Virus genome (UHGV): UHGV-0105104
Source of the DNA: a virus
Length of the DNA: 46,666 nucleotides
Strand: one strand, 5' to 3'
The position numbers and the translations under genes are program-made. The first letter of the stretch is position 1. Each line of letters begins with the position of its first letter. The notes beneath the pieces are model-generated. The model saw only the letters and a program-made list of their open reading frames with translations, searched no databases and was not told the DNA's origin. Below, in pieces: positions 7,223-46,052 of this stretch.

Positions 7223-7513
7223 ATGAAAAAATTTATCGCAGTGGCAGTATTCGCAATGGCTTCATTTGGCGCATCGGCTGGCGAAGTATGCAACAAAGTT
7301 GGCGATGTTGGATTCGCCGCTGCCGATGCTCGTGATTCCGGCGTACCTCAGAGCATAGCAATGGCGGTAGCACAAAGTCCTGAGTACGGCGTGGATGCCA
7401 ACAACGTGCTTGGTGCAACAGTGAAGATGGCCTACTCAATGCCGAACAAGACACCAAAAGAAATCAAGGCAATCACAATTGCGCTTTGCGTATCAAGCAT
7501 GGGTGACTTGTAA
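7223..7513 (+). CDS. secreted/periplasmic protein of unknown function (signal peptide)
   Basis: MKKFIAVAVFAMASFGASA|GEV...: cleavable Sec signal peptide. Confidence 0.45.
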   Translation: MKKFIAVAVFAMASFGASAGEVCNKVGDVGFAAADARDSGVPQSIAMAVAQSPEYGVDANNVLGATVKMAYSMPNKTPKEIKAITIALCVSSMGDL

Positions 7514-18126: not shown

Positions 18127-18405
18127 ATGCACGCAGAAGGCTCAAAGATGAAGTTCGTTTATGACCACCTTGCCGCCATGAAGAGCGGGGAGGTGATATC
18201 CGTCCATTTCGAAAATGATTTATCAGATTCAGTAGTCAGGGGTTACAAAGAGGAGTGCAGCTTATCTGATATCCCTCCAGAATACAGGATGAACAGAAAC
18301 ATGTTCCGCTCCTATGCTGCAAAGATTGCCATTGCGCATAACATGAACATCAAGACCAAAAATGGCCCGATGGGTAAATTCCTGTACATCTGGAAGGTTT
18401 GCTGA
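18127..18405 (+). CDS. hypothetical early protein
   Basis: 92 aa, strong AGGAGG Shine-Dalgarno. Confidence 0.4.
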   Translation: MHAEGSKMKFVYDHLAAMKSGEVISVHFENDLSDSVVRGYKEECSLSDIPPEYRMNRNMFRSYAAKIAIAHNMNIKTKNGPMGKFLYIWKVC

Positions 18406-20054
18406 TGAATACTTACGAAATTATCGCCATGAAAAAATCCGTCGGGAAAGCGGATTCATCAATAGACCCGCTCGATGAGGCTGACATTCCTGAGTTCAGG
18501 GAAAAATACAAGATTCCACCCGGTTCACTTGGGGAGTTCATAGAGGAGATAGAGAAAAATTTCGAGCGCCGTGATGATGGAGAAAAATATCGACTTGTTG
18601 GCGCGCTTGGCCTTGCTCAGATAATGGCTGGTAGATTTATTATTGGCCCTACTGGAAGTAAGTGCTCTACTGGGATTTTCCTCGTGGCGAGGTCTGGAGC
18701 TGGCAAGCAGGCGCCAGTTAATTTTATAAAGCAATATGCTGAAGCCCTGATGATAAGCGACCGCCTTTGCACCACTACTGCTACATCATTAAAGCAGATA
18801 CAGACCAGCATGATTGAAGGTGATGGCTCTCTGCTTTACGTCGTAAACGATGACAAGCAGCATATTGACTCATGGAATGACCCTAGAAGCGCATATCTTG
18901 GCGGAACTGCGCCGTGGTATCGCAGTTTGACTGATGAAGGTGGGTGGGTTCCAACCAGGACAATAATCAGGGATATTGAGGAGAATATGGCTAAAGCCAT
19001 GAACCCCAAGACGATAGTTAGTGTTGCTATGGCGGAAGGCTGGATTGTTCCGCGTATTGGCGGTGCGCAGGATGGGATGATTGACTATAAAAGATTGTCT
19101 CAGATGGATCACAGTGTGGGCAGGAACCTGAAAAAAGTGATGGCTGAGCATGAATTATGCACTCGTGATGGAGGTATTGAGAACGCAAGATTTATTCCTC
19201 TCATCACTGTAACGCCAGTTCAGGGTATTGATGCGGTCAGGTCATGGCAGAAGGATGGTGGCATGGGCAGGACGTTGTTCATCCTTGGTCATGGCGATGA
19301 CGAGGAAATGCCATTACTAAAAAGAGAGCAGCCAGCAGGTGAGGTAAACAGGAGAATAGTAAATGAATGGAAGCAAAGAATCCTCCGCTCAATAACCAGC
19401 GTTGAATTTGAAAGTGAAAAGGTAAACGACAGGCGTTATGAGCTTACGTGCCACCTTGAGAAATGTCTCGGAAATGTAGATGGTGTAATTGGCGATGTTG
19501 TCCCGCGCGCCGGGCAGATGATCGTAGACCTTGCCTCGATATGCGCATTTGCAGACCTTTCGAGTCGCAATGGAATGACGCCAGTTTTGTGCGACAGGCA
19601 TCTTGAATGGGCTTATATGACAGTGATAAACCACCTTCGCTCGCTTCGTGATTATGTAGAAGGTGACGTTGCATTCAGTGGCCTTGAAGAGGATGAGTGG
19701 GAAAACATCATTGCCAAAATTAGAAAGGTGATGGCCGGGAAAAAATTCATTAATAAGCCTTACACTTCCGTACTGAAAAGCGGATTGTGCCGTGGTCGAA
19801 TTGAGACAATCATCAAGGCGGCAAACTCAAATCATCTACAGGTAACGCCTGACAGGTTCATTTCTGAGGTTCTGGTTTCCATTACAGAAAACAGACACTC
19901 ACCTATCGACATTGAGGCTTCTGCTATTAATGGAGGGTCAAAAATCGTCTTCAGGGACGATGGGTCATGGTCTGGACTGCGAATGAATGCCTCGGTGAGA
20001 AACATACTTTCAGCCGCCGTTAACAGGATGAAATTTATGAGAGGTCTGAAATGA
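18399..20054 (+). CDS. large early protein, possible replication initiator / origin-binding protein
   Basis: 551 aa next to the iteron array; degenerate P-loop-like GPTGSK...ARSGAGKQ; no confident family assignment. Confidence 0.3.
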   Translation: MLMNTYEIIAMKKSVGKADSSIDPLDEADIPEFREKYKIPPGSLGEFIEEIEKNFERRDDGEKYRLVGALGLAQIMAGRFIIGPTGSKCSTGIFLVARSGAGKQAPVNFIKQYAEALMISDRLCTTTATSLKQIQTSMIEGDGSLLYVVNDDKQHIDSWNDPRSAYLGGTAPWYRSLTDEGGWVPTRTIIRDIEENMAKAMNPKTIVSVAMAEGWIVPRIGGAQDGMIDYKRLSQMDHSVGRNLKKVMAEHELCTRDGGIENARFIPLITVTPVQGIDAVRSWQKDGGMGRTLFILGHGDDEEMPLLKREQPAGEVNRRIVNEWKQRILRSITSVEFESEKVNDRRYELTCHLEKCLGNVDGVIGDVVPRAGQMIVDLASICAFADLSSRNGMTPVLCDRHLEWAYMTVINHLRSLRDYVEGDVAFSGLEEDEWENIIAKIRKVMAGKKFINKPYTSVLKSGLCRGRIETIIKAANSNHLQVTPDRFISEVLVSITENRHSPIDIEASAINGGSKIVFRDDGSWSGLRMNASVRNILSAAVNRMKFMRGLK

Positions 20055-20409: not shown

Positions 20410-20438
20410 AAAACCCTCCATCAGGAGGGTTTGTTTTT
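20410..20438. terminator. bidirectional rho-independent terminator
   Basis: aaaccctcc-atca-ggagggttt flanked by T-tracts on both strands; sits between convergent 20051..20407 and the primase gene. Confidence 0.6.
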
Positions 20439-21314
20439 TAGTGCTTCAAATAGTTCTTCTGGTTTATACAGCCTTTTTCTGATAGCGCCGCTATAACGGA
20501 TATCATGACCATCATCAGTAATCAGTATCGGAAGACCTGCATTCTCGGCGGCGCACACCTCATCGAAATTATTATTAATGATGCAGCGTAATTTGGCTCG
20601 CTGCTCATCGCTGACATCACGCACAACTTCCCACATATTTTCCGGCGACCAGCAACACCAGACATGTGCGCCGGTAAGCCGATGCGCTCGCCAGGCATCG
20701 AAGTAATCCGCAACCAGGTATGTCCATTCTGTCTTATCGCCGATGGGTGTAACGGCACCGCGCGTTATCCTTCCGCGAGTGTATTCATGGCTGAAACCCG
20801 CTCGAAATGACACGGTTTCATCATCAGCCATAAAAGCCACATTGCATGGCGTCATAGTTCCAGCCATATAGAGTGGGATTGCCACCAGTTCACCTGTTTT
20901 GCCGGTTATGGTGTCGCCGCCTGCTTTTTCCATGATGGCCGCCACTTCTGCCTCTGTCAGGTAGTCAGAAGCATGGTTGACCTTCGGAAGTTTCTTTTTA
21001 ATCGCCTCAAGTTTTTCGCGAGGGTTCATATTCAGAAATCCGGCCAGTGCCTCCATTGACTCTGGGAACGTCATTCCTGACAGCTTCATTAGCCAGGTGA
21101 TTCCGCTGCCGCTCCCGCACTGGTTGCAGATGGCGCCTCCGTCACCTTTTGTTTCGAAGTTGTCATCAAAGCGATACCTGTCTTTGCCAAGACATGACGG
21201 GCATGGTTGGTGCTTGCCATTGAAAACTCGGCTATCCACATTGACGATAGACATAATGGCAGCCTGCCAGTTGCCGAGCATTTTTGGCTCAATGTCTTTC
21301 CAGTCGTATCTCAT
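20421..21314 (-). CDS. DNA primase (zinc-ribbon + TOPRIM)
   Basis: HQPCPSCLGKDRYRFDD...CNQCGSGSG matches the primase-helicase zinc ribbon, followed by a Toprim-like acidic core. Start set to MRYDWKD (AGGAAG Shine-Dalgarno). Encoded antisense to the surrounding early genes. Confidence 0.65.
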   Translation of the reverse strand: MRYDWKDIEPKMLGNWQAAIMSIVNVDSRVFNGKHQPCPSCLGKDRYRFDDNFETKGDGGAICNQCGSGSGITWLMKLSGMTFPESMEALAGFLNMNPREKLEAIKKKLPKVNHASDYLTEAEVAAIMEKAGGDTITGKTGELVAIPLYMAGTMTPCNVAFMADDETVSFRAGFSHEYTRGRITRGAVTPIGDKTEWTYLVADYFDAWRAHRLTGAHVWCCWSPENMWEVVRDVSDEQRAKLRCIINNNFDEVCAAENAGLPILITDDGHDIRYSGAIRKRLYKPEELFEALKNKPS

Positions 21315-21325
21315 AAAATCTTCCT

Positions 21326-21355
21326 GTTGACGATGATGTAGAATCATTGTAATTT
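21326..21355 (+). promoter_or_regulatory. promoter TTGACG-N17-GTAATT for the HNH/helicase block, with GATGATGTAGAAT element
   Basis: ttgacgatgatgtagaatcattgtaattt. Confidence 0.4.
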
Positions 21356-21380: not shown

Positions 21381-21515
21381 CTTGCAATGAAACAATTAAT
21401 CGTTACAATAGAGGATGAGAAATGGCTATCACCGTCAAGAAGTGCGAGGTTTGCGGAAATGAGTTTATCGGAACTGCAAAAGCAAAATGTTGCTCAGGAA
21501 AGTGCAGGGTTAAAA
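21381..21515 (+). repeat. copy 1 of a ~135 bp direct repeat (second copy at 24849..24983) carrying the RBS, ATG and zinc-ribbon codons
   Basis: Both copies contain ttacaatagagg..agaaATGGCTATCACCGT(C/T)AAGAAGTGCGAGGTTTGCGGAAATGAGTTTATCGGAACTGCAAAAGCAA; roughly 85-90% identical by eye. Confidence 0.6.
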
Positions 21516-22463
21516 AATACAGGGACCAAAAGAAAGTCACACATTTCACAGGAGAGGCTAAGGGAGGTTCTTGATTACAACAAAGATACTGGGATATTCA
21601 CACGTAAGATAAAGACAGGTTCTCGTGTTAAAGTCGGAGATATTGCTGGCTGTCTTGATGTTAGTGGTTATCTGAGAATTAGCATAGATGGCAATCAATA
21701 TTGGGCGCAAAGACTCGCATGGATTTATGTTAATGGAGATAATATTGGGAATGCGAAAATTGAGCACATAAACAAAAATCGCGCTGACAACAGGATATGC
21801 AACCTTAGGCTTTCAACTGAAGTTTTAAATGAGAAAATGTGCTCAAAATGCAGGTCCGTTCTTCCAGCTACAAGCGAATACTTTTATGCAGATAAAAGTA
21901 TGAAACTTGGCTTTAGTTCCATATGCAAGAAGTGCTCTGGTAATAAAGGGAAGAGAGCAAGATACCTTGGTAATGGATTGAAGATTTGCTCTAAGTGTAA
22001 ATCTGTTCTTGAGGCGAACGAAGAAAACTTTAATAAAAATAAATCATCCCTTGATGGACTGCGTCCTGATTGCAAAAAATGTCAGGCTGAGTTCAGGAAA
22101 AATATTTATAAATTAAAAAAGTCAGAGATAAATGAAAAATCAAAACGTTATTACGATAAAAACAAGGAAAAGCATAACGAGAAGTCAAAGCAGTGGAGAC
22201 AGAAAAACAAGGGTGTTGTTAGATATCATCAGCGTAAATATAAGTATCTTAAAAGACGGGCGATACCATCATGGTTTGAACATGAAAGGGTTTTAATTGA
22301 AAAGGTTTATGAGATGGCTGGCGTTCTTGGTATGCAGGTTGATCACATAGTGCCAATAAATAGCAAATTGGTTTGTGGCCTTCACTGCTGGCATAACTTG
22401 CAATTACTTGCACCAAGTGAGAACAGATCTAAAAGCAACTCTTATTGGCCTGACATGCCATAG
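21387..22463 (+). CDS. HNH homing endonuclease (N-terminal HNH_3/AP2-type domain plus C-terminal HNH and CxxC fingers); body lacks its own start codon
   Basis: VLDYNKDTGIF...GYLRISIDGNQYWAQRLAWIYVNG...IEHINKNRADNRICNLR and C-terminal VDHIVPI...HNLQLLAPSENRSKSN. No ATG/GTG/TTG in frame between the zinc-ribbon region and the domain. Confidence 0.6.
   Translation: MKQLIVTIEDEKWLSPSRSARFAEMSLSELQKQNVAQESAGLKNTGTKRKSHISQERLREVLDYNKDTGIFTRKIKTGSRVKVGDIAGCLDVSGYLRISIDGNQYWAQRLAWIYVNGDNIGNAKIEHINKNRADNRICNLRLSTEVLNEKMCSKCRSVLPATSEYFYADKSMKLGFSSICKKCSGNKGKRARYLGNGLKICSKCKSVLEANEENFNKNKSSLDGLRPDCKKCQAEFRKNIYKLKKSEINEKSKRYYDKNKEKHNEKSKQWRQKNKGVVRYHQRKYKYLKRRAIPSWFEHERVLIEKVYEMAGVLGMQVDHIVPINSKLVCGLHCWHNLQLLAPSENRSKSNSYWPDMP
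21422..21574 (+). CDS. zinc-ribbon leader ORF (50 aa) in the frame +1 relative to the downstream HNH body; possible frameshift fusion partner
   Basis: MAITVKKCEVCGNEFIGTAKAKCCSGKCRVKKYRDQKK... with GAGGA Shine-Dalgarno 9 nt upstream. All three third-position differences between the two copies are synonymous in this frame. Confidence 0.45.
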   Translation: MAITVKKCEVCGNEFIGTAKAKCCSGKCRVKKYRDQKKVTHFTGEAKGGS

Positions 22464-24848: not shown

Positions 24849-24983
24849 CTTGCAATGTAACGGTAAATGATTACAATAGAGGTTAAGAAATGGCTATCAC
24901 CGTTAAGAAGTGCGAGGTTTGCGGAAATGAGTTTATCGGAACTGCAAAAGCAAGATTTTGCTCAGGGAAGTGCAGAGTCAAAC
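24849..24983 (+). repeat. copy 2 of the ~135 bp RBS + zinc-ribbon module
   Basis: See copy 1; offset 3468 bp. Confidence 0.6.
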
Positions 24984-25493
24984 ATCATAGGAGGAAGAAA
25001 AATAATACCACGTGATGTTGTTTTGGATAGCTTAAGTTACAACCCTGAAACAGGGGTTTTCATTAGAAATAAGACGGGTGGAGGTGTAAGAAAGGGTAGT
25101 GTTGCTGGCAGGCGAAAACATAACGGATACATAGAGATAAGCATAAATAATAAAAGATACTACGCGCATCGCTTGGCATGGTTGATTTATTATGGTTTCT
25201 GGCCTGAAGGTCAAATTGATCACATCAATGGTGTGCGTGACGATAACAGGATTTGCAACTTAAGAATCGCAACAAATATGCAGAACCAGTATAACGCCAA
25301 AAAACCAAAAAATAACACATCAGGAGTTAAAGGCGTGTATTGGCAAAAACAGGTTAAAAAGTGGCAGGCTTACTGTGATGTTAACGGGAAAAGATACCAT
25401 CTTGGGTTATTCAGTGATATTGAGAGAGCGCGGTTGTCTGTGATGAAATTCAGAGAAAAGATGCATAAAGAATTCTGTAACCACGGAGAGTGA
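24867..25493 (+). CDS. HNH / AP2 homing endonuclease
   Basis: SYNPETGVF...NGYIEISINNKRYYAHRLAWLIYYGFWPEGQIDHINGVRDDNRICNLR plus AP2-like GVYWQKQVKKWQAYC...HLGLF. Confidence 0.65.
   Translation: MITIEVKKWLSPLRSARFAEMSLSELQKQDFAQGSAESNIIGGRKIIPRDVVLDSLSYNPETGVFIRNKTGGGVRKGSVAGRRKHNGYIEISINNKRYYAHRLAWLIYYGFWPEGQIDHINGVRDDNRICNLRIATNMQNQYNAKKPKNNTSGVKGVYWQKQVKKWQAYCDVNGKRYHLGLFSDIERARLSVMKFREKMHKEFCNHGE
24890..25015 (+). CDS. zinc-ribbon leader ORF (41 aa), frame +1 relative to the HNH body
   Basis: MAITVKKCEVCGNEFIGTAKARFCSGKCRVKHHRRKKNNTT. Confidence 0.45.
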   Translation: MAITVKKCEVCGNEFIGTAKARFCSGKCRVKHHRRKKNNTT

Positions 25494-27138: not shown

Positions 27139-27218
27139 TAAATGGCTCGCGGTGTAAATAAAGTAATTAAAAGTTGACTCAATGGTTGGAAATTACTATA
27201 TTGCACAAGGAGGTGCAT

Positions 27219-27719
27219 ATGAATGAGTTTGATATGTATTTGTCTGGCATGAGCATCCCTCAAATCTCCAATGAAACAGGAATGGCCATGTCAACATTGA
27301 GGTTTAGATTTAAAAAAGCCGGAATATTGAGAAGCAGAGGAGATGCAATAAGAATTGCTGCCGCAGATGGAAGACTTGGCTCAGGGCTTAGGGGTAAAAA
27401 ACGAGAGTTTACCGAAGAATGGAAGCAAAATATATCAAAATCAAAGAAAGGAGTTGGCAAGGGGCGCTCTGTAAAACCGAACGGTTATGTCGAGATAACT
27501 ATGGGTGAAAACAAAGGAAGAGGAGAGCGTGTTGTAGTTATGGAAGGCATTATTGGGAGGAGGTTGTTTCACAATGAATGCGTTCATCATATAGACCATG
27601 ATAAAACAAACAACCATCCAAGTAACCTAATGCTTATGACGAAGTCAGAGCACGCATCATTACACGCCACAGAGAATCATAATGGCAGATTAAGAGATAA
27701 AAACGGGAGATTCAAGTAA
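27219..27719 (+). CDS. HNH homing endonuclease with N-terminal HTH
   Basis: AAGGAGGTG Shine-Dalgarno; ...[27 protein letters not shown]. Confidence 0.65.
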
Positions 27720-28222
27720 TGTCTTCGATTGGTATTAATAAGTGCATAATCCTTGGTCGAGTTGGTAATGACCCGGAAATTAGATATTCAGCATCAGGTT
27801 CTGCAATTGCCAATCTTTCCGTTGCAACATCAGAACAGTGGAATGACAAGGCCACAGGTGAAAAGAAAGAGCAAACTGAATGGCATCGCGTTGTTATCTT
27901 CGGAAAGCTGGCAGAGGTGGCTGGCGAATACCTGCGCAAAGGCTCTCAGGTATACATAGAGGGTAAATTACGCACTCGAAAATGGACAGATCAAAGCGGT
28001 GTTGAAAAATACACTACTGAAATTGTCTTGCAGCCGATGAACGGCGTTATGCAAATGATTGGTGGTAAATCAAGTGATAATGGAAACCAACAATCACAGC
28101 AGCGACAACAATCAGGAAGCAATAAGCAGTCAGGATGGGGTAAACCTCAGCAACCATCAAGCACACAAAAAACACCGGCAAACGAGCCGCCGATGGATTT
28201 TGACGATGATATTCCGTTTTGA
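27719..28222 (+). CDS. ssb: single-stranded DNA-binding protein
   Basis: [41 protein letters not shown]...[14 protein letters not shown]-fold, Gln/Ser-rich linker and DDDIPF acidic tip. Confidence 0.85.
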
Positions 28223-28280
28223 GTTTTCAAAAAACAACATAAGGTATATGACTATGAAAGATGAACATGGTGTTGATGTA

Positions 28281-28312
28281 ATTTTAGGCAATCCGTAATT
28301 ATACATATACGG
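28281..28312. other. perfect 11 bp inverted repeat (ggcaatccgta...tacggattgcc) forming a stable hairpin without a U-tract
   Basis: Seen directly in the sequence after the SSB operon. Confidence 0.4.
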
Positions 28313-28313
28313 A

Positions 28314-28514
28314 TTGCCAGGGCCTGATACAACACTAGTTATCGCAAAGGAATTCAAAAATGATAAAGTTTTATGTTTCGATGTTTATTCAGAGTTTGAT
28401 ATTGAATTAGACCCCCTGGAAATTTTTCCAGCGCAAAAAGACCGTATAGACATGGAACGAAATGCGCAAGGTGCTAGATTTTTGCGTAAATTTAGCATTA
28501 ATGCTAAATCATAA
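28314..28514 (+). CDS. hypothetical protein
   Basis: 66 aa, last rightward ORF before the tail genes. Confidence 0.3.
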   Translation: MPGPDTTLVIAKEFKNDKVLCFDVYSEFDIELDPLEIFPAQKDRIDMERNAQGARFLRKFSINAKS

Positions 28515-28520
28515 TGCAAA

Positions 28521-28550
28521 AATTTAAAATAAAAGGGGCGTAAGCCCCTT
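28521..28550 (-). terminator. rho-independent terminator ending the leftward tail operon
   Basis: Minus strand reads aaggggc-ttac-gcccctt then TTTATTTTAAATTTTT. Confidence 0.55.
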
Positions 28551-28698
28551 AAACTATCTTAAATGTCAATTCTTCTTTGTCAGAAAACGCATTGTTCATT
28601 AAGTAATCTAACACATAATCTTGTTTTTCAATTTCGTCGGAAAACGATGAGCCGCCATCATCTATTTCCACTGTAACCGGAAGAGCGTCAGTTGTCAT
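28549..28698 (-). CDS. small acidic protein (49 aa) downstream of the tailspike
   Basis: MTTDALPVTVEIDDGGSSFSDEIEKQDYVLDYLMNNAFSDKEELTFKIV; not in the ORF track. Confidence 0.3.
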   Translation of the reverse strand: MTTDALPVTVEIDDGGSSFSDEIEKQDYVLDYLMNNAFSDKEELTFKIV

Positions 28699-28731
28699 AA
28701 ACCACACATTTACTTTTAACATTTAACACCT

Positions 28732-30714
28732 CTATGTAAAATTAATAATGAAATTATCGACGTCGATCACCGCACCTTCACGGCAGCGGATAGATACTTC
28801 GCAGTACTCAGCGGCTTGTGGCACGCGACCCTGTATGAACCGTCCTACAGATTGCCATCCGCTCGGGGTGTTAGTAAAATTACTACTTGCACCTGATTGG
28901 AGGGGGTTGCCAGCCCTATCGTAAAATGTAACGGTTAACGCCCCTGCTGTTGTTCCTGTTCCAGCCGTTATTGTATTGATTTGACACGTTGTCGAGTAAT
29001 AACCATGCTGTGTTACTTTTACCTTTTGAGTTAAGAAACAACTTAACGACCCGAACGATGTCATTCTCGCACCATAATTGCCTGTTTTCTTATATGCTGT
29101 ACCAACTACACATGTTTGACTGGCAGAACTCTGATTATTAAATGTCCACGATGATAAATCCCCTGTCTCAAATCCGGGATTCAATGTTGGGTTAAGGGAT
29201 TTATGGAGTGGAATATTTCCCGCCCCGGACAAGATATCTCCTATACAATGACTTGCGGTAACATACCCATCTCCCTCAACGAAAGTTCTTAATCCTTCGT
29301 CTCCATTCTGAAAGGGATAATCATTTCCTGGTGTTTTAACAAGGGTTACATCGATGAAGGCGTTTGCCCCCACGTGGAATAGTGGTCTCGTTTGCAGCGA
29401 CGGGTTGTTACACACAAGTGTACACCCATTAAGGATGAGTCGCGCCGCAATTCCTGTTACTTCCCCGTAGCGATACCACGCTGACGCCCCTGGATTTTCA
29501 ATATTAGCCGCCGAATCCAAGATGACCATGGCACCGTTACCAGTTATCTTAATCGGGGTATTCAATACCGATGTGCCAGGCATCCCAATGGCAAAACTCG
29601 CACATTCCACAAGTATCGGACATCCTTTCATGTCGAATATTTTGCAATTTTGGAAAGTAATTGACTCTCCGGAGTCCGAAAGGCCGGCTGGGAAGTGCAT
29701 CGCATATGTGCCTCCGGTTGACTCCATCATGAATCCACAATTGATGAATTTATAACGCCAGGTACTATTGGAGCCCCCTAAAACGATATCAGCAGTGGAA
29801 AACATGCAGTTTTCGATCTTACAGTCGCCATTATAGGTGCCGTTGCTGGAATCGTTATTGTTTCCAGTTAGCAGCAACCGCTGACCAATGTTTTGAATCG
29901 CACCTTTGACTTTTATACCACGCATGGATGTACAGTGGTTCTCTGACCCAGCAGGATATGGGCGACTGGAATGAACCCATAAACAGTAAGGGGCAGTACA
30001 ACCTGTAAAGTCAATATAGGCGATGCCATTGGGGCTCTCGAAAGAATAGTACCCTAAATCTACTTCCAAACCTTGCGACCCAGTTACATAATAGGTTTTC
30101 CCCGCCTGTAACACCACATTGACTTTGTTGGACTTCGCATAAGATAGCGCCGACTGGAGCTGTTCTGTGTCAGTGCCTGGTAAATCCTCCGGCATTATAA
30201 ACTTAGTTCTTCTGTTAAAAATCTCTATATAATCATCAAGCTGTATACCATCAGAGTGGGTTACTAATGAAGTTCCCGGTATTACAGAGGAAGATAATTC
30301 CTGCCTTAAATTAGCATCGCCAACACTTACAAGATGCGTAACATCAGTAGCCCAAGATGCACTATTAATACCAGTGGTTGTATATGGTGGGCTAGTGACA
30401 GCATTTAAACGCCAAAACTCATTCTGATAACGAATAATCTGATTACGAGCGGCAATTGTATAAGGCCCGTTTTCATAATCTCCTAAAAACTGATAACCAG
30501 AGTTTAAGAGAAATTGCTGAAAATCATATTCCCTTTGAGTCTGCGCATCCTGAAACTGTTTATTCCTACCGGTATTCGTCAGTCTCTGCACATCGAATCG
30601 GTCGGTGTAGTAATCAGCACTGCCATTGACCTCTTCATCAATCTTCCCTGCGTTAAACTTCAGGTCACGCGGGTCTTCAGAGGGGATTGGATTGTTAGTT
30701 GGGGTGGTAGCCAT
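28732..30714 (-). CDS. tailspike / tail fiber with right-handed beta-helix (depolymerase-like) core and C-terminal carbohydrate-binding-like domain
   Basis: N-terminal particle-attachment region, central repeats rich in N/G/C with ...GNGAMVILDSAANIEN... typical of pectate-lyase-fold tailspikes, C-terminal beta-sandwich-like tail. Start at ATG 30714 (GGAGA Shine-Dalgarno). Confidence 0.6.
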   Translation of the reverse strand: MATTPTNNPIPSEDPRDLKFNAGKIDEEVNGSADYYTDRFDVQRLTNTGRNKQFQDAQTQREYDFQQFLLNSGYQFLGDYENGPYTIAARNQIIRYQNEFWRLNAVTSPPYTTTGINSASWATDVTHLVSVGDANLRQELSSSVIPGTSLVTHSDGIQLDDYIEIFNRRTKFIMPEDLPGTDTEQLQSALSYAKSNKVNVVLQAGKTYYVTGSQGLEVDLGYYSFESPNGIAYIDFTGCTAPYCLWVHSSRPYPAGSENHCTSMRGIKVKGAIQNIGQRLLLTGNNNDSSNGTYNGDCKIENCMFSTADIVLGGSNSTWRYKFINCGFMMESTGGTYAMHFPAGLSDSGESITFQNCKIFDMKGCPILVECASFAIGMPGTSVLNTPIKITGNGAMVILDSAANIENPGASAWYRYGEVTGIAARLILNGCTLVCNNPSLQTRPLFHVGANAFIDVTLVKTPGNDYPFQNGDEGLRTFVEGDGYVTASHCIGDILSGAGNIPLHKSLNPTLNPGFETGDLSSWTFNNQSSASQTCVVGTAYKKTGNYGARMTSFGSLSCFLTQKVKVTQHGYYSTTCQINTITAGTGTTAGALTVTFYDRAGNPLQSGASSNFTNTPSGWQSVGRFIQGRVPQAAEYCEVSIRCREGAVIDVDNFIINFT

Positions 30715-38748: not shown

Positions 38749-39234
38749 ATGAAAATAACTGATTGGTCAGATATTTTTTATTATTGTGATGGGGCTATTT
38801 ACTGGAAGATAAGAACCTCAAACAGAGTGAAAATCGAAAGCGAGGTGAAGGCGGTAGGAGGCAATGGATATAAGATTGTTGGAATCTATGGCGTCAAGTA
38901 TCTTGTTCATCGCATCATCTGGGAAATGCATAATGGGAAAATTCCTGACGGAATGCAGATTGATCATATAGACCACAATAAAACAAACAATAAGATAGAT
39001 AACCTCAGGATTGTCACTCCAAAAGAGAATAATCACAACATGAAGTTCAGGGTGACAAACAAATCAGGTGTTACTGGTGTTTCATGGGATAAACAACATA
39101 AAAAATGTGCCTCAAACATAAAAGTTGATGGCGTAAAGATTCATCTTGGATTGTTTTCTGACTTAAATATGGCCGCTGAAGCAAGGAGAAAGGCGGAGGT
39201 TAAGTATGATTTTCATGAGAACCATGGTAAATGA
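38749..39234 (+). CDS. HNH / AP2 homing endonuclease
   Basis: ...IDHIDHNKTNNKIDNLRIVTPKENNHN plus AP2-like GVSWDKQHKKC...HLGLF. Confidence 0.7.
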   Translation: MKITDWSDIFYYCDGAIYWKIRTSNRVKIESEVKAVGGNGYKIVGIYGVKYLVHRIIWEMHNGKIPDGMQIDHIDHNKTNNKIDNLRIVTPKENNHNMKFRVTNKSGVTGVSWDKQHKKCASNIKVDGVKIHLGLFSDLNMAAEARRKAEVKYDFHENHGK

Positions 39235-40627: not shown

Positions 40628-40671
40628 GTTTAGAATCCTCTCTGTTTAGCTAAACAATCGCATTATATCAT

Positions 40672-40700
40672 GTTGACAGGTTTTGATTGGTGGTGTAGAT
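40672..40700 (+). promoter_or_regulatory. promoter TTGACA-N17-TAGATT with GTGTAGATTAAATGG element
   Basis: Seen in the sequence; leads into a ~300 nt leader before the 41004 ORF. Confidence 0.35.
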
Positions 40701-41003
40701 TAAATGGCAGATAGTTTTCGTAAGCGACTTTGCGGGTTTTTAGAAACTGACCACAAAGATAAATGCAAACGAAGAAATGTATCTGGCAGTAGCCTAACGG
40801 CTAAGCACCAGCAAGGTCTTCCGACTCCTTGTCAATGAATTCGGCGCACTGTCCCGGTGTGATTAATAATGGGCACACAACAGGTAAGAGCATTGTCAGG
40901 TAGCTTCAGGGGGCACGCCCGCACTGGTGACGACTTATGCGCAAAAGTACGTGTGGTAAGTCCTGTAGTGCTCTTTCCGTTGTGGTAATGCGGCTATGCG
41001 CAC

Positions 41004-41315
41004 GTGGCAAGGTATAAATATGCTCTTTTTGTGGGTATGCCTGCTGGATTTACCGACCAGCAACCTGGAGGCGCCAGGGCCACAACAATAATTCGAATCC
41101 TGTCGCGGGAACCATCTTCGGGGAGCGCAATTATACAAATCCAAAAAATCCACGATGATTACTGGCGCATAGCTGACAAAAATAACAGCAGGATTGCTGG
41201 TATATCAAAGGTCGGGAAGTGGTATGTTGTCGCAAATGCTAATGGGCGATATGATGCCCGATTCGAATATCTTGGCGATGCCATTGATTATTTATTATGT
41301 AGTAATGACTACTAA
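41004..41315 (+). CDS. hypothetical protein
   Basis: 103 aa, followed by a terminator. Confidence 0.3.
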   Translation: MARYKYALFVGMPAGFTDQQPGGARATTIIRILSREPSSGSAIIQIQKIHDDYWRIADKNNSRIAGISKVGKWYVVANANGRYDARFEYLGDAIDYLLCSNDY

Positions 41316-41345
41316 AAGCCGCTCATCAGCGGCCTTTTTTATTCA
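41315..41345. terminator. rho-independent terminator (aaagccgc-tcatca-gcggcctttttt)
   Basis: Hairpin plus TTTTTTATT. Confidence 0.55.
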
Positions 41346-42483: not shown

Positions 42484-42601
42484 GGTTCGGCCTTAAGAGT
42501 ATAAACCCAGCGCGGAACTGGAAGGCGCAGCAATACCAGAATAACCAACAACGGCATGCACCATTTACGGATTGCGATATTTACAGTTAATGTTGATGTT
42601 T

Positions 42602-42994
42602 TCATCTGCACTTGCTCCCGGTGACAACCCGAAACCACGGCTTTGCACTTCCATCAGGCTCTTCCACAAGGTCGCCTGTGCAATCTGCCGTATCGAGTAG
42701 CTTCATCTGATTGTAAAGGGCCATCCACGGCTTGCTTCCATAGCCAAATGATTGCGACGCACCAGATGGCGCCCGGTGGCTGGTGATGTATCTCCCGGCT
42801 GTATTTGAGGCGATTAGGATAGATGCCCATAGCAGAATTGCATCCTGCCTGCATGTGTCTTCGGGGTAATTAAGCTCAAGGCACTCTGTGATGCTCGTTA
42901 CCAGACACAGGATTCCCGTTGCGTCTGCCGTGGTGATAGTTACGCCTCTTGACGCCATGGCGGCGACAAGTTCACTTGCTGTCGGTGCTGCCAT
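42602..42994 (-). CDS. head-tail connector protein
   Basis: Start at MAAPTASELV... Confidence 0.35.
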   Translation of the reverse strand: MAAPTASELVAAMASRGVTITTADATGILCLVTSITECLELNYPEDTCRQDAILLWASILIASNTAGRYITSHRAPSGASQSFGYGSKPWMALYNQMKLLDTADCTGDLVEEPDGSAKPWFRVVTGSKCR

Positions 42995-43262
42995 TCTTTT
43001 TGCTCTCCCGAATCTTCCACCACATCTCAAAAAGGTTTTTTGCCACCAGTGACAGCGCGCCAAGGATAGAGGCCACCGCCGCCCACTCGGTAATCGAATG
43101 GGGGATCATTGAGGCAATGTATGATTGTGCGACTGGCGTCTGCTCTGCCACCTTCAGGCCAAGTCCCGTGCCGATGGATGTATAACCGGCTTTGTCGATT
43201 ACCTGGCCGACAGTGCCACTAATTATCTGGTTTGCGGCGTGCTGAAGCGCGTCTCTCATCAA
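42972..43262 (-). CDS. hypothetical protein with C-terminal TM segment
   Basis: 96 aa. Confidence 0.3.
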   Translation of the reverse strand: MMRDALQHAANQIISGTVGQVIDKAGYTSIGTGLGLKVAEQTPVAQSYIASMIPHSITEWAAVASILGALSLVAKNLFEMWWKIRESKKNGSTDSK

Positions 43263-43420
43263 TTATTCTCCGAATGATGAACTTCCAGCATCTGTACACC
43301 TGAACCAGCGAAAACGCCATGACGATAACGCCTATTGCTATATCCAATTTCGCCGCCTTACGTTTTTCAGGACGGAACAGCGCTGGGTGAGTGTTGTTGG
43401 TTTAATTTTATCATAAAGTG

Positions 43421-43463
43421 TTGACGTAGATTGAGGGTGTCGCTATAGTGATGACGTAGAAAC
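43421..43463 (+). promoter_or_regulatory. promoter of island H: TTGACG-N17-TATAGT with TTGACGTAGATTGAG and a second GATGACGTAGAAAC element
   Basis: Same -35/spacer/-10 as the late promoter at 17673-17701. Confidence 0.5.
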
Positions 43464-43488
43464 AACAATAAATGTTAGAGGTGATGAG

Positions 43489-43704
43489 ATGAGTAAAGAA
43501 AACAATGGCGTCCCTGCATATCCAACGCAAGGGTACGAAGGTTTGACTGTTCGTGATTACTTTGCGGCAAAAGCGATGCAGGGATGGCTGGCAAGTTATC
43601 CAGAGAGCAATCAGCACCCTGTAGCTACTCACCATGAAAACATGGTTGCTGAACTTTCTTACCTGATGGCTGATGCAATGCTGAAAGCTCGGGAGGCTGT
43701 ATGA
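43489..43704 (+). CDS. hypothetical protein
   Basis: 71 aa, GAGGTG Shine-Dalgarno. Confidence 0.4.
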   Translation: MSKENNGVPAYPTQGYEGLTVRDYFAAKAMQGWLASYPESNQHPVATHHENMVAELSYLMADAMLKAREAV

Positions 43705-43732
43705 GTGATGAATTTAAAGGTACGCCGTCGCC

Positions 43733-43993
43733 GTGACGCGCGAGCACGGCGATGAGGCGGTTAAGGTTGTCGAAGAGGCCGCAGAAGAATCGCGCGCCAA
43801 TGGCAAAGAGAAAATCACTGCCAAAGTGCTTAAGCCGAAGAAAGCCAAACCTGTTGATCGCCTGATTGAACTGCTTAAGCTTGCTGACCATGTGATTCTG
43901 CCTAAAGGTCACACCACAGCGCAGGATGAAGAGTTTATCCAGATTCCTGCCGCTGATATCCGCGAAGTACTGGAGATTCTGGAGAAGATGTGA
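43733..43993 (+). CDS. hypothetical acidic/basic protein
   Basis: 86 aa. Confidence 0.35.
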   Translation: MTREHGDEAVKVVEEAAEESRANGKEKITAKVLKPKKAKPVDRLIELLKLADHVILPKGHTTAQDEEFIQIPAADIREVLEILEKM

Positions 43994-44250
43994 TGACAAA
44001 TAAATTAATTCCATGCGCAAGCCAAGGGAAGCGTTATGCTACTAATATCTGCGAGCACCTGGCTGAATATCTTCAATATGTGTCCAACAAAAAAACCAAA
44101 GGTCTGGTTGCTTGTCATTCTGTGTTGATTTCAACTGGAGAATCTCTTGGGCAAAAAATTACATACCAGTCAGGAAATGGCAGCCCTGTAATCCTGAACT
44201 TCTGCCCATTCTGCGGTGGAAAACTGCATAGCATTAATGATGAGGGCTAA
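43990..44250 (+). CDS. small Cys-rich (CPFCGG) putative zinc-binding protein
   Basis: C9, C21, C42, C72-x2-C75; ATGA coupling. Confidence 0.35.
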   Translation: MMTNKLIPCASQGKRYATNICEHLAEYLQYVSNKKTKGLVACHSVLISTGESLGQKITYQSGNGSPVILNFCPFCGGKLHSINDEG

Positions 44251-44428
44251 CAATTACGACCCCCGAAGACTTCATCGCCAAAAACATTCGGGCGAAAATC
44301 CAGGATATTGAGCAGGGCGCGATTGATGCGGCCATTCAGCATTACAAGCGTCGGCAGCCCGAGAAAAAAGGAGGCATGTTTGATGAGTGCCTCAAGATTG
44401 CAAAACAACATATGATGAAGGTGAAAAA

Positions 44429-44965
44429 ATGAAACTAAAAATCAGCAAGCTGTTACTGGAAGGGGCGCTGATGTTTCAAGCCAAACAGGATGTGCGTTAC
44501 TACCTTAATGGCATTTGCTTTATGCCTGATGGTCGTGTTGCCGCTACTGATGGTCATCGCGCATTCATTGCCAGTAAGCACGAAAATAAACTGGCCGATA
44601 ATGTTATTGTATCTGTCAGTAAGTCCCCGACTAAGCGCTATGCATATGCATTGCTGGATACTAAAACTAAAATTGTTACTTACCATGACGAACATGAAAT
44701 AGTGGTTGGCGCTGGCATCTGCTCTGAGATTGATGGCCGATTCCCTGATATTGATCGCGTTATACCAAAGCAGACCGCACCAGCAGAGCAGATTGGCTTT
44801 AACGCCAAATACCTGGTAGACGTTGAAAAGCTGGCGAAATTGTTCAGTCCGAAATATGAAAGTGTGCGCTTTTACCTGAACGGCAATACCAATGCAGCCG
44901 TTGCAAATGTCAGTGCGCCTACAGGCGAGCCAGCAAAAGTTATTGTTATGCCGATACGCATTTAG
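44429..44965 (+). CDS. truncated beta sliding clamp (DnaN) homolog, 178 aa
   Basis: QDVRYYLNG, ATDGHR, DGRFPDIDRVIPK, QIGFNAKYLVDV and C-terminal VIVMPIRI align with E. coli DnaN QDVRYYLNG / ATDGHR / DGRFPDYRRVLPK / EIGFNVSYVLDV / YVVMPMRL (recalled from memory). Confidence 0.6.
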   Translation: MKLKISKLLLEGALMFQAKQDVRYYLNGICFMPDGRVAATDGHRAFIASKHENKLADNVIVSVSKSPTKRYAYALLDTKTKIVTYHDEHEIVVGAGICSEIDGRFPDIDRVIPKQTAPAEQIGFNAKYLVDVEKLAKLFSPKYESVRFYLNGNTNAAVANVSAPTGEPAKVIVMPIRI

Positions 44966-44970
44966 TCAAC

Positions 44971-44997
44971 AAAGCCCCTTTCGGGGCTTTTCTTTTA
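44971..44997. terminator. bidirectional terminator (aaagcccc-tttc-ggggcttt, TCTTTTAT)
   Basis: Between convergent island H and the 272-aa structural gene. Confidence 0.55.
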
Positions 44998-45816
44998 TCA
45001 CGCCTGATAAGTATCATCCTCAAACCACGAAACGTAAGCATTGATATTTTGCGCCGCAGTATCCAGGGATGTGATGCGCAACAGATAGGTAGTATTAGGC
45101 GCCATGATGACCTGTTCACCAAGTTTCGCCTGCGAATTACCCTGCCCCTGATTAGATGCGTTCCCTTCACTATACGTCGCGGCCACCGTCAGCTGCCCGA
45201 CACTTGTCACCGTGGCCCCGGTAAGTAATTGCGCGGTCGCTGCCTGCGGTGTCAGGTCATTCGGGTTATTAATCTCCGCAGCGGTGCCGCCAGTTGCTAC
45301 AGCACCACGATAAATTGACGCAACAACTCCCTTTCCGGTATAGCCAATAATGCGCTGGTTAAACACGACCTGCTTTGTGCCAGTAATAAAAATACTGTCG
45401 AGGTTAGCGCCCCCTGCCACATCCGTTACCCGGCGTGATGCTGTGAAAAGCTTACCCTGCTTGTTGGCGAGTTCGGTATAGGGCTGAGCAACGACCTGAC
45501 TTGATGGCACTGAGGTGTCAGCTCGCCACACCAAAACTTTCAGGGAAGCAACGCCAGCAGGAAGCTGGGACTTGATCACCTTCAGTCGCAGTGCTACGCC
45601 ATAATAATTATTATTGTTAACGTCAATCCAGAAATCACCAGATTCGAATGGCGATACCATTACGGAAACAGAGCCGCTTGTTAATGGTTCATGGCCGCCC
45701 GAAGAGTTTAACGGCACAATCTGTACCTGCAATGCAGTCCAGTCTGCTGACATGGTTTCGCTAAGCAAAACCTCTCCGTCAGTCGGAGTTGTGTTTATTT
45801 CGTACCTGACAGCCAT
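44998..45816 (-). CDS. structural protein of unknown role (Thr/Ala/Gly-rich, beta-rich; possible head fibre/decoration)
   Basis: Start at ATG 45816 with GGGGG Shine-Dalgarno. Confidence 0.35.
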   Translation of the reverse strand: MAVRYEINTTPTDGEVLLSETMSADWTALQVQIVPLNSSGGHEPLTSGSVSVMVSPFESGDFWIDVNNNNYYGVALRLKVIKSQLPAGVASLKVLVWRADTSVPSSQVVAQPYTELANKQGKLFTASRRVTDVAGGANLDSIFITGTKQVVFNQRIIGYTGKGVVASIYRGAVATGGTAAEINNPNDLTPQAATAQLLTGATVTSVGQLTVAATYSEGNASNQGQGNSQAKLGEQVIMAPNTTYLLRITSLDTAAQNINAYVSWFEDDTYQA

Positions 45817-45830
45817 GATAACCCCCAATA

Positions 45831-45858
45831 AAAAACCCGCTTGTTTGCGGGTTTATTT
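45831..45858 (-). terminator. strong rho-independent terminator on the minus strand
   Basis: Minus strand reads aaacccgc-aaacaa-gcgggttt then TTTTTTATT. Confidence 0.55.
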
Positions 45859-46052
45859 TACTTGGTTTTCTTTGCCTTTGGCTGCGATTCTTGCGGAGTT
45901 GCAACTTCCAGAACTTTCTCGCTAACCGGGCGAAGTTTTGACTCAATGTGTGGGCTTGATTCGTCAATGATATCGCCAATAGCAAGCTCACGCAGGCGAC
46001 CATCTTTATCCTTGACGAAGATTCCGCTGGCGATAACTTCGTATTTAGCCAT
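45858..46052 (-). CDS. hypothetical small protein downstream of MCP
   Basis: 64 aa, GAGGT Shine-Dalgarno. Confidence 0.35.
   Translation of the reverse strand: MAKYEVIASGIFVKDKDGRLRELAIGDIIDESSPHIESKLRPVSEKVLEVATPQESQPKAKKTK

Follow-up and report, generated by a model that had tools for sequence, protein, structure and literature searches.

The beta sliding clamp is a hub that coordinates bacterial replication, repair and initiation control, and its partner-binding pocket is an antibiotic target. Members of the DnaN class are proteins of ~366 aa that score above curated family thresholds and combine three clamp-fold domains, two channel-lining helices per domain, a head-to-tail interface that closes the ring, and a hydrophobic pocket at the domain II/III boundary; put on DNA by the gamma/tau clamp loader, they make Pol III processive. 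In Escherichia coli beta, the dimer interface is formed by I78/F106 of domain I together with I272/L273/E298-E304 in the first half of domain III. Five short phage polIII-beta homologues (short clamps in what follows) were listed by Kazlauskas and Venclovas (2011), who also described clamp homologues encoded without a clamp loader as having a raised pI, like non-ring processivity factors. The family has been noticed for ~20 years, apparently without being studied; Bcep781 gp15 is annotated as 'DNA Pol III b subunit fragment' and SO-1 gp07 as 'possible moron gene product', and no functional or structural characterization of any member was found in the literature searched. A first-pass annotation of the locus described here, which knew of no characterized truncated clamp of this kind, was right to that extent, but such proteins have hardly gone unnoticed, being annotated in hundreds of phage genomes. 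Phages are also known to act on the host clamp with other proteins: Twort Gp168 is reported to plug the clamp channel (PMC8565349), and the clamp is reported to be used for late transcription by Mu C (PMC12867686) and T4 gp33/gp55 (PMC2988020).

The member analyzed here, an ordinary one, is encoded in a Klebsiella phage genome of 46,666 nucleotides (UHGV-0105104, the whole of which is called the window). Its ORF occupies positions 44429-44965 on the plus strand, from an ATG at 44429 to a TAG at 44963-44965, and specifies 178 aa. A Shine-Dalgarno-like GAAGGTG, read from the sequence, lies at 44417-44423 on the same strand, 5 nt upstream of the ATG. An alternative upstream GTG at 44387, a frequent start call in databases, would give 192 aa, but M1 is kept by 90% or more of the close family members, which favors the start at 44429. 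Against 16 close relatives, the median dN/dS is 0.065, a sign of strong purifying selection; the short clamp is accordingly a working gene rather than a fragment in decay.

Relationship to DnaN is clear at the sequence level. In phmmer searches against PDB sequences, the protein matches the Enterobacter clamp with an E-value of 1.4e-14 and E. coli beta with 8.7e-14, residues 7-165 aligning with beta 136-298 and residues 120-178 with beta 315-366, and E. coli DnaN in turn scores 100 bits with an HMM built from the short-clamp family. The description of the product as a clear DnaN homologue of about half size is thus borne out. Scores against curated families are lower: Pfam DNA_pol3_beta_2 (PF02767) gives 19.8 bits and beta_3 (PF02768) 14.8 bits against a cutoff of 27, the N-terminal domain model finds no match in the Pfam scan, and TIGR00663 gives 38.8 bits against a cutoff of 137.65. 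Such sub-threshold values are consistent with a partial, diverged clamp, and neither they nor the length and domain content of the 178-aa protein agree with those of the DnaN class. All conserved blocks reported earlier are present, namely QDVRYYLNG (residues 20-28), ATDGHR (39-44), DGRFPD..RVIPK (102-114), IGFN..Y (122-128) and VIVMPIR (171-177), which correspond to E. coli R152/L155, T172-L177, P242/R246/V247, N320/Y323 and V360-R365.

An AlphaFold model of the short clamp (pLDDT 96) contains ~1.5 clamp domains. Residues 1-116 (44429-44776, plus strand) are the counterpart of domain II, equivalent to E. coli 130-252 in the alignments and the model, and hold the first two blocks and the DGRFPD..RV linker. 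Residues 117-178 and the stop codon (44777-44965, plus strand) form a half-domain of one beta-alpha-beta-beta-beta unit, whose two ends (IGFN..Y and VMPxR) match E. coli 317-323 and 361-365 in the second half of domain III. Foldseek accordingly needs ~258 columns to align the 178 residues with E. coli beta, skipping ~80 target residues. The only helices in the model are 7-16 and 126-139; helix alpha2 of domain II is replaced by a loop at residues 64-72 (pLDDT >95), leaving two channel helices where three would be expected, and the DnaN pattern of two channel-lining helices per domain is not seen in the model. The earlier statement that most of domain I and much of domain III are missing was correct as to the parts and inexact as to their extent: domain I is wholly absent, the first half of domain III is absent, and in the model domain II lacks helix alpha2. 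Since the alignments cover only beta 130-252 and 314-366, both dimer-interface segments are absent, and judging from the sequence a head-to-tail ring-closing interface would be lacking. The earlier statement that parts needed for a normal ring are missing is thereby upheld, and the name 'DNA polymerase III beta subunit' is misleading for a protein that cannot be a normal clamp.

Fold searches with the model returned clamps exclusively. BFVD matches of 178-209 aa reached query-normalized TM-scores of 0.75-0.90, and dozens of viral proteins of 163-250 aa have the same fold. At the sequence level, ~2,400 clusters at 50% identity match the short clamp, the best matches being nearly all 170-220 aa long, and tblastn found homologues in 283 phage genomes, the hit spanning 80% or more of the query in 271 of them. 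The profile phrog_3007 matches residues 1-178 with an E-value of 2.3e-57. With this full-length match, a length within ~160-250 aa and the 1.5-domain fold shared among the BFVD entries, the protein belongs to the short phage polIII-beta family (PHROG 3007/947). Family records carry the names "DNA polymerase III beta subunit", "fragment" and "RusA-like resolvase". The last, applied by RefSeq and PHROG to the PHROG 3007 family as 'RusA-like Holliday junction resolvase', is wrong; a Pfam scan at E-values up to 10 gives the two DnaN domains and nothing else. Plasmids seldom carry homologues (21 records, among which several are dnaN itself), and a search of complete E. coli genomes did not turn up the lambdoid-type gene. 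No natural tandem fusions were found, the one candidate (P0232, 1004 aa) being a WD40-repeat false positive.

What has been retained most faithfully is the partner-binding pocket. When 17 residues of the E. coli beta pocket, listed in PMC11139829, were mapped onto the short clamp, 14 proved identical and two more were conservative replacements. In an alignment of 90 diverse relatives (26-50% identity to the query), mean conservation was 0.77 in pocket columns versus 0.37 elsewhere (Mann-Whitney p 2e-8), and of the 11 columns that reach 90% identity or more, nine belong to the pocket (hypergeometric p 3e-9). R23, H43, M174, P175 and R177 are each conserved in 89-98% of family members. The claim that the pocket residues are kept is thus upheld, and they rank highest in conservation across the family. 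The hydrophobic domain II/III pocket is accordingly present in its residues, with a geometry taken from fold superposition alone and a putative binding function. Two points temper this. The position of L177 is Ala here, and those of R176 and M364 vary across the family, so that specificity may differ from that of beta; and since the same blocks are the most conserved in DnaN itself, their retention could be partly structural. A further feature of the protein is its charge, with a pI of 9.1 versus about 5.2 (5.25) for E. coli beta. The family median is 8.3, ~10% of members fall below 6.1, and Lys/Arg residues are conserved in the two retained helices (positions 11, 134 and 137) as well as at 19 and 142.

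The short clamp sits in an exchangeable accessory cassette. A sigma-70-type promoter-like site, TTGACG-N17-TATAGT (43421-43449, plus strand; 10/12 consensus), which would act as its promoter, precedes a series of plus-strand ORFs. The first (43489-43704, 71 aa) matches phrog_2201 with an E-value of 8e-26, in the C-terminal part of the profile only. The second (43733-43993, 86 aa) is a ParB-like C-terminal remnant: it matches positions 200-294 of the 334 in phrog_1033 ('ParB-like partition protein') and resembles the 3' part of the DP01 and KlebP_265 ParB-like genes at 66-69% nucleotide identity, and in relatives a ParB-like gene of 271-283 aa stands in its place and precedes the short clamp. 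The third (43990-44250, 86 aa) carries CxxC motifs and matches phrog_4030 with an E-value of 5e-17, along with a weak, sub-threshold match to DUF6980. Finally, 44256-44432 is homologous to a conserved ORF of 57-58 aa, here lacking an ATG, GTG or TTG start before codon 41, which in relatives (L001, L007, L013 and L019) ends on the short-clamp start codon in an ATGA overlap; L033, whose short clamp is 49% identical, also has a homologous small ORF upstream with a 4-nt overlap. Downstream, a G+C-rich hairpin, AAAGCCCCTTTCGGGGCTTT, followed by a T-run (44971-44990, assigned to neither strand), lies between the convergent short clamp and a 276-aa head-module gene.

The promoter-like site and the hairpin with its T-run are present as described in the first-pass annotation, as is the self-contained unit between them, located between head genes and head-tail joining genes. 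In a pattern scan, promoter and terminator patterns were no commoner than in shuffled sequence, so that their significance rests on the conserved flanks. Positions 42500-43492 are 96% identical to KlebP_265, and positions 43200-43492 are 98.6% identical to DP01, after which the cargo differs; homology to KlebP_265 picks up again at 44968, directly past the short-clamp stop codon, the two cassette flanks being 96% and 90% identical to that genome. The KlebP_265 cargo consists of a ParB-like protein, a C5 methylase and an unrelated 172-aa protein, and the short clamp is absent from its entire genome. Because this closest relative, a phage of 90% identity, lacks the gene, the short clamp is dispensable there and not essential. 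A role as a defense or counter-defense component was considered and rejected, as PADLOC gave no match at E-values up to 0.1 for the short clamp or for three of its cassette neighbors.

Genomic context was also searched for a dedicated partner. Three genes on each side were counted in 23 clusters, formed at 60% identity out of 80 viral contigs; no family accounted for more than two of the 111 neighbors, and an obligate partner gene was rejected on that basis. In the window's clade, as in Serratia phage Eta, the short clamp comes after a ParB-like gene, and other neighbors occur outside the clade. Elsewhere the gene lies in the orders SSB-ParB-like-clamp-helicase (Eta) and cII-clamp-O-P (lambdoid prophages), and in EP23, SO-1 and Bcep781 it is likewise a lone opposite-strand gene within the head-gene cluster. 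A steady link to DNA-modification genes was rejected, Nmad5 in EP23 and methylases in L064, KlebP_265 and R19R being inconsistent; the Tmn/Nmad5 paper leaves the short clamp unmentioned. Among the window ORFs, the sole matches to the strict pattern Q[LIVM]x[LM](x)[FL] fell in spurious antisense ORFs and at a single internal position of a head-tail protein, and the canonical clamp-binding motif is absent from the termini of replication proteins in the window phage, SO-1, Eta and Bcep781; a phage-encoded ligand was rejected on these grounds. The sequence QHM[IM]KV at the C-terminus of the upstream 57-aa ORF was discarded as a clamp-binding motif, not being kept in the L033 homologue.

The window phage encodes a helicase, a primase, an SSB and a recombinase; as had been noted, no DNA polymerase was found in it, and close relatives have no annotated clamp-loader gene, nor was one found among the window's larger ORFs. 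The association drawn earlier between the short clamp and a need for host Pol III nevertheless fails for the family. A short clamp occurs without an own polymerase in the window phage, Eta and lambdoid prophages, and together with an own DNA polymerase in Sodalis phage SO-1 and in Burkholderia phages Bcep781 and AH2, which refutes any rule confining it to polymerase-less phages. Occurrence both with and without an own polymerase points to a host-directed rather than a polymerase-specific role. Furthermore, the gene is no evidence of a phage-owned replicase and should not be used uncritically as a replication marker.

The role of the short clamp is probably the capture of host replication or repair proteins. 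The explanation that we prefer, tentatively and at a little short of an even chance, is that it is a non-ring pocket module derived from DnaN that binds the clamp-binding motifs of host proteins. It would represent the part of beta across the domain II/III boundary, where motifs of the Q-L-x-L-F type dock, detached from the ring and probably monomeric. Host RNA polymerase would transcribe it from the cassette promoter as the last cassette gene, presumably early, and its conserved job would be to bind motif peptides of host proteins, with Pol III alpha, epsilon and delta, Hda, Pol II/IV/V and MutS/MutL as candidate ligands. By mimicking and competing with host beta, the protein would pull motif-bearing proteins off host clamps, presumably to the benefit of the phage, and its basic helices may place the bound proteins on DNA without a clamp loader. 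As a decoy that trapped Pol III would harm a polymerase-less phage, the relevant ligand may be something else. Moreover, the basic pI, the conserved helix Lys/Arg and the frequent replication-gene neighbors argue for a DNA-linked replication role rather than a free decoy.

These same features lead to an alternative in which the protein serves phage replication and does not compete with the host, as a loader-independent tether or adaptor whose basic helices sit directly on DNA, in the manner of herpesvirus UL42/UL44, and whose pocket keeps the host Pol III core or another motif-bearing enzyme on phage DNA. The charge difference from beta, the conserved basic positions and the raised pI of loaderless clamp homologues (Kazlauskas and Venclovas, 2011) all fit this proposal, as do the replication proteins of this phage, in which no polymerase was found, and the synteny with SSB, helicase and O/P genes in other lineages. 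We nevertheless regard it as unlikely, if still of some weight, since the closest relative manages without the gene, no conserved partner gene accompanies it, the more acidic tenth of the family would be unexplained, and other members coexist with a PolA-type polymerase that has no terminal clamp-binding motif. It is less probable still that the pocket-like residues are kept for folding only and that the protein has an unrelated role, for example in DNA binding or regulation with the ParB-like and 57-aa proteins. The position behind a ParB-like gene in this clade and in Eta, the translational coupling of the small ORF to the short clamp in relatives, and the reported use of clamps for late transcription in T4 and Mu (PMC2988020 and PMC12867686) would accord with such a function. 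In the window, however, the clamp gene remains whole and under constraint even though the ParB-like gene is a remnant and the small ORF has lost its start; outside this clade the neighbors differ; and the conservation of the five exposed residues named above exceeds what folding alone would be expected to impose.

Two further readings concern the ring. A lone half-domain usually needs a partner surface, and half-domains might, for example, pair to complete a domain, two such dimers then making a ring; with three beta-alpha-beta-beta-beta units per chain, a tetramer would have twelve, as in the beta dimer. An oligomer of this kind, closed or C-shaped, could be used by host or phage polymerases as a true sliding clamp. 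The missing channel helix in the model and the absent native interface residues speak against it, pairing through half-domains would put the pockets on opposite faces, a raised pI is typical of non-ring clamp homologues, and neither the phage nor its relatives have an annotated clamp-loader gene; we consider it very improbable. The suggestion in the first-pass annotation of a poison subunit, forming mixed dimers with host beta that block ring closure and stop host replication, is weaker again and in our judgement scarcely credible. General homology to beta is all that recommends it, both halves of the beta-beta interface (I78/F106 and I272/L273/E298-E304) fall in the deleted parts, and the phage apparently relies on host Pol III and clamps itself.

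A broader form of the preferred reading of a detached, motif-binding pocket extends it to the family, whose members would be a widespread and hitherto unrecognized class of phage effectors, off-ring copies of the beta pocket that act either as loader-independent DNA tethers or as client sponges; we consider this possible, though on balance doubtful. In the tether version, host Pol III or other motif-bearing enzymes would be handed to phage DNA, by analogy a counterpart of UL42. In the sponge version, selected clients such as translesion polymerases, Hda, mismatch repair proteins or motif-bearing toxins would be stripped from the host clamp. If so, a compact and stable copy of the pocket, shaped by natural evolution and carried by hundreds of phages that infect enterobacteria, vibrios and Burkholderia, would represent a new viral way to tap or jam the beta-clamp hub, and would be usable as it stands as a reagent, namely a monomeric pocket domain with which to screen peptides and inhibitors.

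Compared with the described systems, the short clamp is closest to its own family. PHROG 3007/947, Bcep781 gp15, SO-1 gp07, EP23 p08 and AH2 gp20 belong with it, and the short phage polIII-beta homologues share its length class and fold, with BFVD TM-scores up to 0.90; the literature describes them as covering 'the second and third domains', whereas the window gene covers domain II and half of domain III. E. coli DnaN (PDB 2POL and 1MMI) has 366 aa versus 178 aa and differs in possessing domain I, the first half of domain III, the second helix of domain II (as judged from the model) and the dimer-interface segments, with a pI of 5.2 versus 9.1; the short clamp falls below all curated thresholds for that class. 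The herpesvirus processivity factors UL42 (a monomer) and UL44 and BMRF1 (dimers) resemble it in combining a clamp fold and raised positive charge with a genome that has no clamp loader, and the charge and conserved Lys/Arg make direct, UL42/UL44-like binding of double-stranded DNA a candidate property. In contrast, those factors have two full domains, are PCNA-like and not derived from DnaN, and serve the virus's own polymerase, which docks through a terminal peptide; no polymerase was found in the window phage, and those of SO-1 and Bcep781 carry no terminal motif for such docking. Twort Gp168, Mu C and T4 gp33/gp55 share the likely target, the host hub of clamp and motif network, and have no sequence or fold relationship to the short clamp. 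Whereas these proteins bind the clamp, the short clamp is a partial copy of it and would bind the clamp's clients.

The genome is that of a complete siphophage of about 46.7 kb and, along most of that length, shares about 90% identity with the Klebsiella phages KlebP_265, DP01, BUCT541, and KpV2811. Its short clamp, a DnaN homologue, is encoded on the plus strand at 44429-44965 (178 codons, ATG to TAG), with GAAGGTG five bases before the ATG. A 192-codon alternative starting at GTG 44387, common in databases, is less likely, because the N-terminal Met of the short form is kept in at least 90% of close family members. When all PDB chain sequences were searched with phmmer, only beta sliding clamps were matched, including those of Enterobacter cloacae (best, E = 1.4e-14) and E. 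coli (E = 8.7e-14), in agreement with the DnaN homology proposed in the first-pass annotation. Residues 7-165 aligned with beta 136-298, and a second, overlapping stretch paired residues 120-178 with beta 315-366, ending VIVMPIRI vs YVVMPMRL. Pfam and NCBIfam profiles detected the same relationship with scores under curated thresholds, and gave no match to the N-terminal clamp domain. In PHROGs, the full-length protein is placed in phrog_3007 (E = 2e-57), with a weaker match to phrog_947 ('DNA polymerase processivity factor'). Labelling of phrog_3007 as a 'RusA-like Holliday junction resolvase' was rejected, as a RusA domain is undetectable and all fold matches are clamps. This PHROG-derived name has spread to short clamps in many RefSeq phage genomes (e.g., NC_071156, NC_054639, and NC_013600), which, given that the family lacks a RusA domain, is a systematic misannotation.

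An AlphaFold2 model of the protein alone, computed from an alignment of 90 diverse members of the family (short phage polIII-beta homologues), predicts a clamp-type fold with confidence (mean pLDDT 96.4, pTM 0.90), in the order beta-alpha-beta-beta-beta, four helix-free strands, beta-alpha-beta-beta-beta. Foldseek alignment to E. coli beta spans about 258 columns for 178 query residues, equivalent to a gap of about 80 target residues, and the family HMM aligns to E. coli beta at 136-252 and then at 314-366. Taken together, these results show that the short clamp consists of DnaN domain II and the second half of domain III, joined directly via a P242-K250-type linker; neither domain I nor the first half of domain III is present. 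In the model, the second helix of domain II is replaced by a short loop (residues 64-72), whose pattern K-x-P-T-x-x-Y is conserved among closer relatives. The half-domain is also similar, in its middle part, to the first half of domain III, as expected from the two halves of a clamp domain being internal repeats; its assignment to the second half is decided by both ends, IGFN..Y and MPxR. The earlier description of a half-size protein without most of domain I and much of domain III is therefore correct in outline, although domain I is wholly absent, the loss in domain III is its first half, and in the model domain II also lacks its second helix.

The partner-binding pocket of E. coli beta, which docks clamp-binding motifs, comprises subsite I (R152, L155, T172, G174, H175, R176, L177, P242, R246, V247, V360, and M362) and subsite II (H175, N320, Y323, V344, M362, P363, M364, and R365) (PMC11139829). 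Seventeen of these residues could be mapped onto the short clamp by exact motif anchors, and 14 of them are identical, the substitutions being V360 and M364 to Ile and L177 to Ala. Mean conservation across the 90 aligned family members (26-50% identical to the query) is 0.77 in pocket columns vs 0.37 in other columns (Mann-Whitney p = 2e-8). Pocket residues (R23, L26, T40, G42, H43, P106, Y128, M174, and P175) account for nine of the 11 columns conserved in at least 90% of sequences (hypergeometric p = 3e-9), and the remaining two, D21 and Y25, flank pocket residues. Judged from these sequence comparisons, the retention of the pocket claimed earlier is well supported, and the pocket is the most conserved feature of the family. 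Beta builds its pocket from three segments, namely the first half of domain II, the II-III linker, and the second half of domain III, and precisely these are retained here; we therefore infer that the short clamp represents the minimal unit spanning the pocket-bearing domain boundary.

The short clamp is the final gene of a plus-strand unit lying between head-tail joining genes (up to 43262) and minus-strand head genes (44998 onward). The unit starts with a promoter-like TTGACG-N17-TATAGT (43421-43449, plus strand) and ends with a terminator-like hairpin and T-run (44971-44990), both from a pattern scan that by itself is not above chance. Its flanks closely match KlebP_265 (42500-43492, 96% identical; 44968-46000, 90% identical), whereas all cargo between them, bounded by the first start codon and the last stop codon, differs. 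The exchangeable slot, 43493-44967, corresponds to KlebP_265 27545-30162, which holds a ParB-like gene, a C5 cytosine methylase, and an unrelated 172-aa 'YppF-like' protein with no Pfam match; the short clamp is absent from the entire KlebP_265 genome. Among Klebsiella phage records at the DNA level, about 24 carry the clamp gene vs 35 with the neighbouring head-module gene, unmatched counts that are indicative only. On the basis of the sharp borders, the different cargo, and these counts, the gene is accessory and exchangeable, in line with the moron island recognized at first pass. In the typical operon of the clade, a small ORF is followed by a ParB-like gene of 271-283 aa, in some cases additional cargo, a conserved ORF of 57-58 aa, and the clamp, whose start is overlapped by the stop of the preceding ORF (ATGA), the two being translationally coupled in relatives. 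Nearly all clade members, like Serratia phage Eta, have the ParB-like gene (HTH_ParB/KorB) ahead of the short clamp. Only a C-terminal remnant of it, 86 aa long, is left in this genome (43733-43993, plus strand), and the 57-aa ORF homologue (44256-44432, plus strand) has lost its start codon, with no ATG, GTG, or TTG before codon 41; translation may begin at ATT 44253, or the ORF may be a pseudogene. Despite this erosion, the clamp gene is intact.

Elsewhere, the genome is unusually rich in selfish elements, as judged from HNH genes together with a terminase intein. The large terminase subunit (12858-15392, minus strand) has 844 aa, compared with 474 aa in KlebP_265, and contains a Hint domain (92-178) and a LAGLIDADG homing endonuclease (309-375) ahead of the Terminase_3 ATPase (454-648). 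Free-standing HNH homing-endonuclease genes (phrog_99 and relatives) number at least four, all on the plus strand; three lie within the replication/recombination module and one between tail genes, at 21387-22463, 24867-25493, 27174-27719, and 38749-39234. ARAGORN found no tRNA genes in the entire window; in the close relatives DP01 and KlebP_265, the region corresponding to 40650-41340, which separates the major tail gene from the head-tail joining genes, carries tRNA-Ser, tRNA-Arg, and tRNA-Met.

In other phages, the surroundings of the gene vary. In Dhillonviruses (EP23 and SO-1) and Bcep781, it is a lone opposite-strand gene within the head-gene cluster; in Eta, it belongs to an early operon of SSB, ParB-like gene, clamp, and helicase. 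In a 13-locus cluster including lambdoid prophages, it is flanked by cII on one side and by the replication genes O and P on the other, as in locus L042 (4495-8164), where a 178-aa short clamp (45-48% identical, together with that of L055) is inserted at this position; in L055 (6001-8335), it precedes a Lin1244_N protein and a P-like protein. On other viral contigs, it adjoins an SF2 helicase, C5 methylase, or DUF3987 protein, or lies near a DnaB-like helicase, and in Vibrio phage R19R, Dam methylase and SSB are nearby. Across 23 clusters, no neighbour family exceeded 2 of 111 neighbours, and no obligate partner gene is evident. The Dhillonvirus neighbour is an Nmad5 protein (EP23 6592-7356, Pfam E = 2e-58); point mutations in the Nmad5 gene have been linked to escape from the Tmn defence system, in a study that does not discuss the short clamp (2025, PMC11846954).

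The phage encodes a primase-helicase-type protein (18399-20054), a zinc-ribbon primase (20421-21347, minus strand), an SF2 helicase, an exonuclease VIII-like nuclease, ERF, and SSB. In agreement with the first pass, no DNA polymerase was found in it, with no such domain in scanned ORFs of at least 300 aa and none annotated in close relatives. However, short clamps coexist with phage DNA polymerases in SO-1 (gp38), Bcep781 (gp62), and AH2 (gp73), so a rationale in which a polymerase-less phage specifically recruits host Pol III cannot apply generally. A strict search detected no canonical clamp-binding motif in genuine genes of the window; nor was one found at replication-protein termini of this phage, SO-1, and Eta, where a relaxed pattern gave only internal matches at chance level, or at the polymerase termini of SO-1 and Bcep781. 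The phage SSB ends in the usual type of tail, DFDDDIPF, and PADLOC defence models gave no match. Since no phage-encoded motif was found, the ligands of the short clamp are likely host proteins.

The beta dimer is stabilised by I78 and F106 of domain I and I272, L273, E298, and E304 of the first half of domain III (PMC11139829), all of which fall in the parts absent here. A normal head-to-tail ring would therefore not be possible, as previously claimed, nor would a mixed dimer with host beta via the native interface. A self-assembled ring of some other kind is accordingly quite improbable, and the earlier suggestion of a poison subunit for the host clamp becomes very hard to credit. More probably, although well short of certainty, the short clamp is a non-ring module that keeps the pocket and acts by motif binding, as a competitor or a tether.

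Between these two, we tentatively favour a mimic of host beta, a reading given slightly less than even chances, in which the protein would compete for selected host clients and pull them off host clamps, possibly onto DNA via its basic face. This choice reflects an exchangeable accessory gene that is independent of phage replication strategy and has no phage-encoded partner. The main rival, considerably less probable, is a loader-independent tether aiding replication, in keeping with the frequent synteny with replication modules and with the basic charge: the pI is 9.1 (family median 8.3), whereas E. coli beta has a pI of 5.25 and its corresponding segments one of 6.1, and conserved Lys/Arg occur at 11, 19, 134, 137, and 142, on the two remaining helices and nearby. 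A motif-independent role together with the ParB-like protein is more doubtful still. The hypothesis is precise and inexpensive to test, and the family it concerns is large, though the mechanism is one we infer.

When 1.84 billion cluster representatives were searched exhaustively with HMMER, 2,413 proteins matched at E ≤ 1e-3, 188 of them at E ≤ 1e-10; lengths were 170-220 aa in almost all of the best 150 of the 2,413. By tblastn, 283 phage records matched, 271 of them with a full-length homologue, in phages of Salmonella, Escherichia, Vibrio, Klebsiella, Burkholderia, Proteus, and others, and in BFVD the same fold is shared by dozens of viral proteins 163-250 aa long (TM-scores up to 0.90). 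Against 16 close relatives, median dN/dS is 0.065 at dS of about 1. The short clamp is a typical member of a family that is catalogued but unstudied, and not in itself a discovery: 'DNA Pol III b subunit fragment' is the annotation of Bcep781 gp15, the gene served as a 'signature' in the paper on the close relative ZCKp20p, under the name DNA polymerase III beta subunit, and 20 years of 'beta subunit' annotation lessen the surprise. Consistent with the first-pass remark that no characterised truncated clamp of this kind was known, the literature searched contains no functional or structural study of the family, nor, as far as could be found, the finer architecture (1.5 domains, a pocket-bearing boundary plus a degenerate half), the pocket as the most conserved feature of the whole family, or the swap-in, swap-out cassette. 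Raised pI has been shown for viral clamp homologues that lack a clamp loader, as for the non-ring, directly DNA-binding factors of herpesviruses (Kazlauskas and Venclovas 2011, PMC3201878), a pattern that the short-clamp family shares. Compared with characterised systems, the short clamp is a new variant of the clamp fold.
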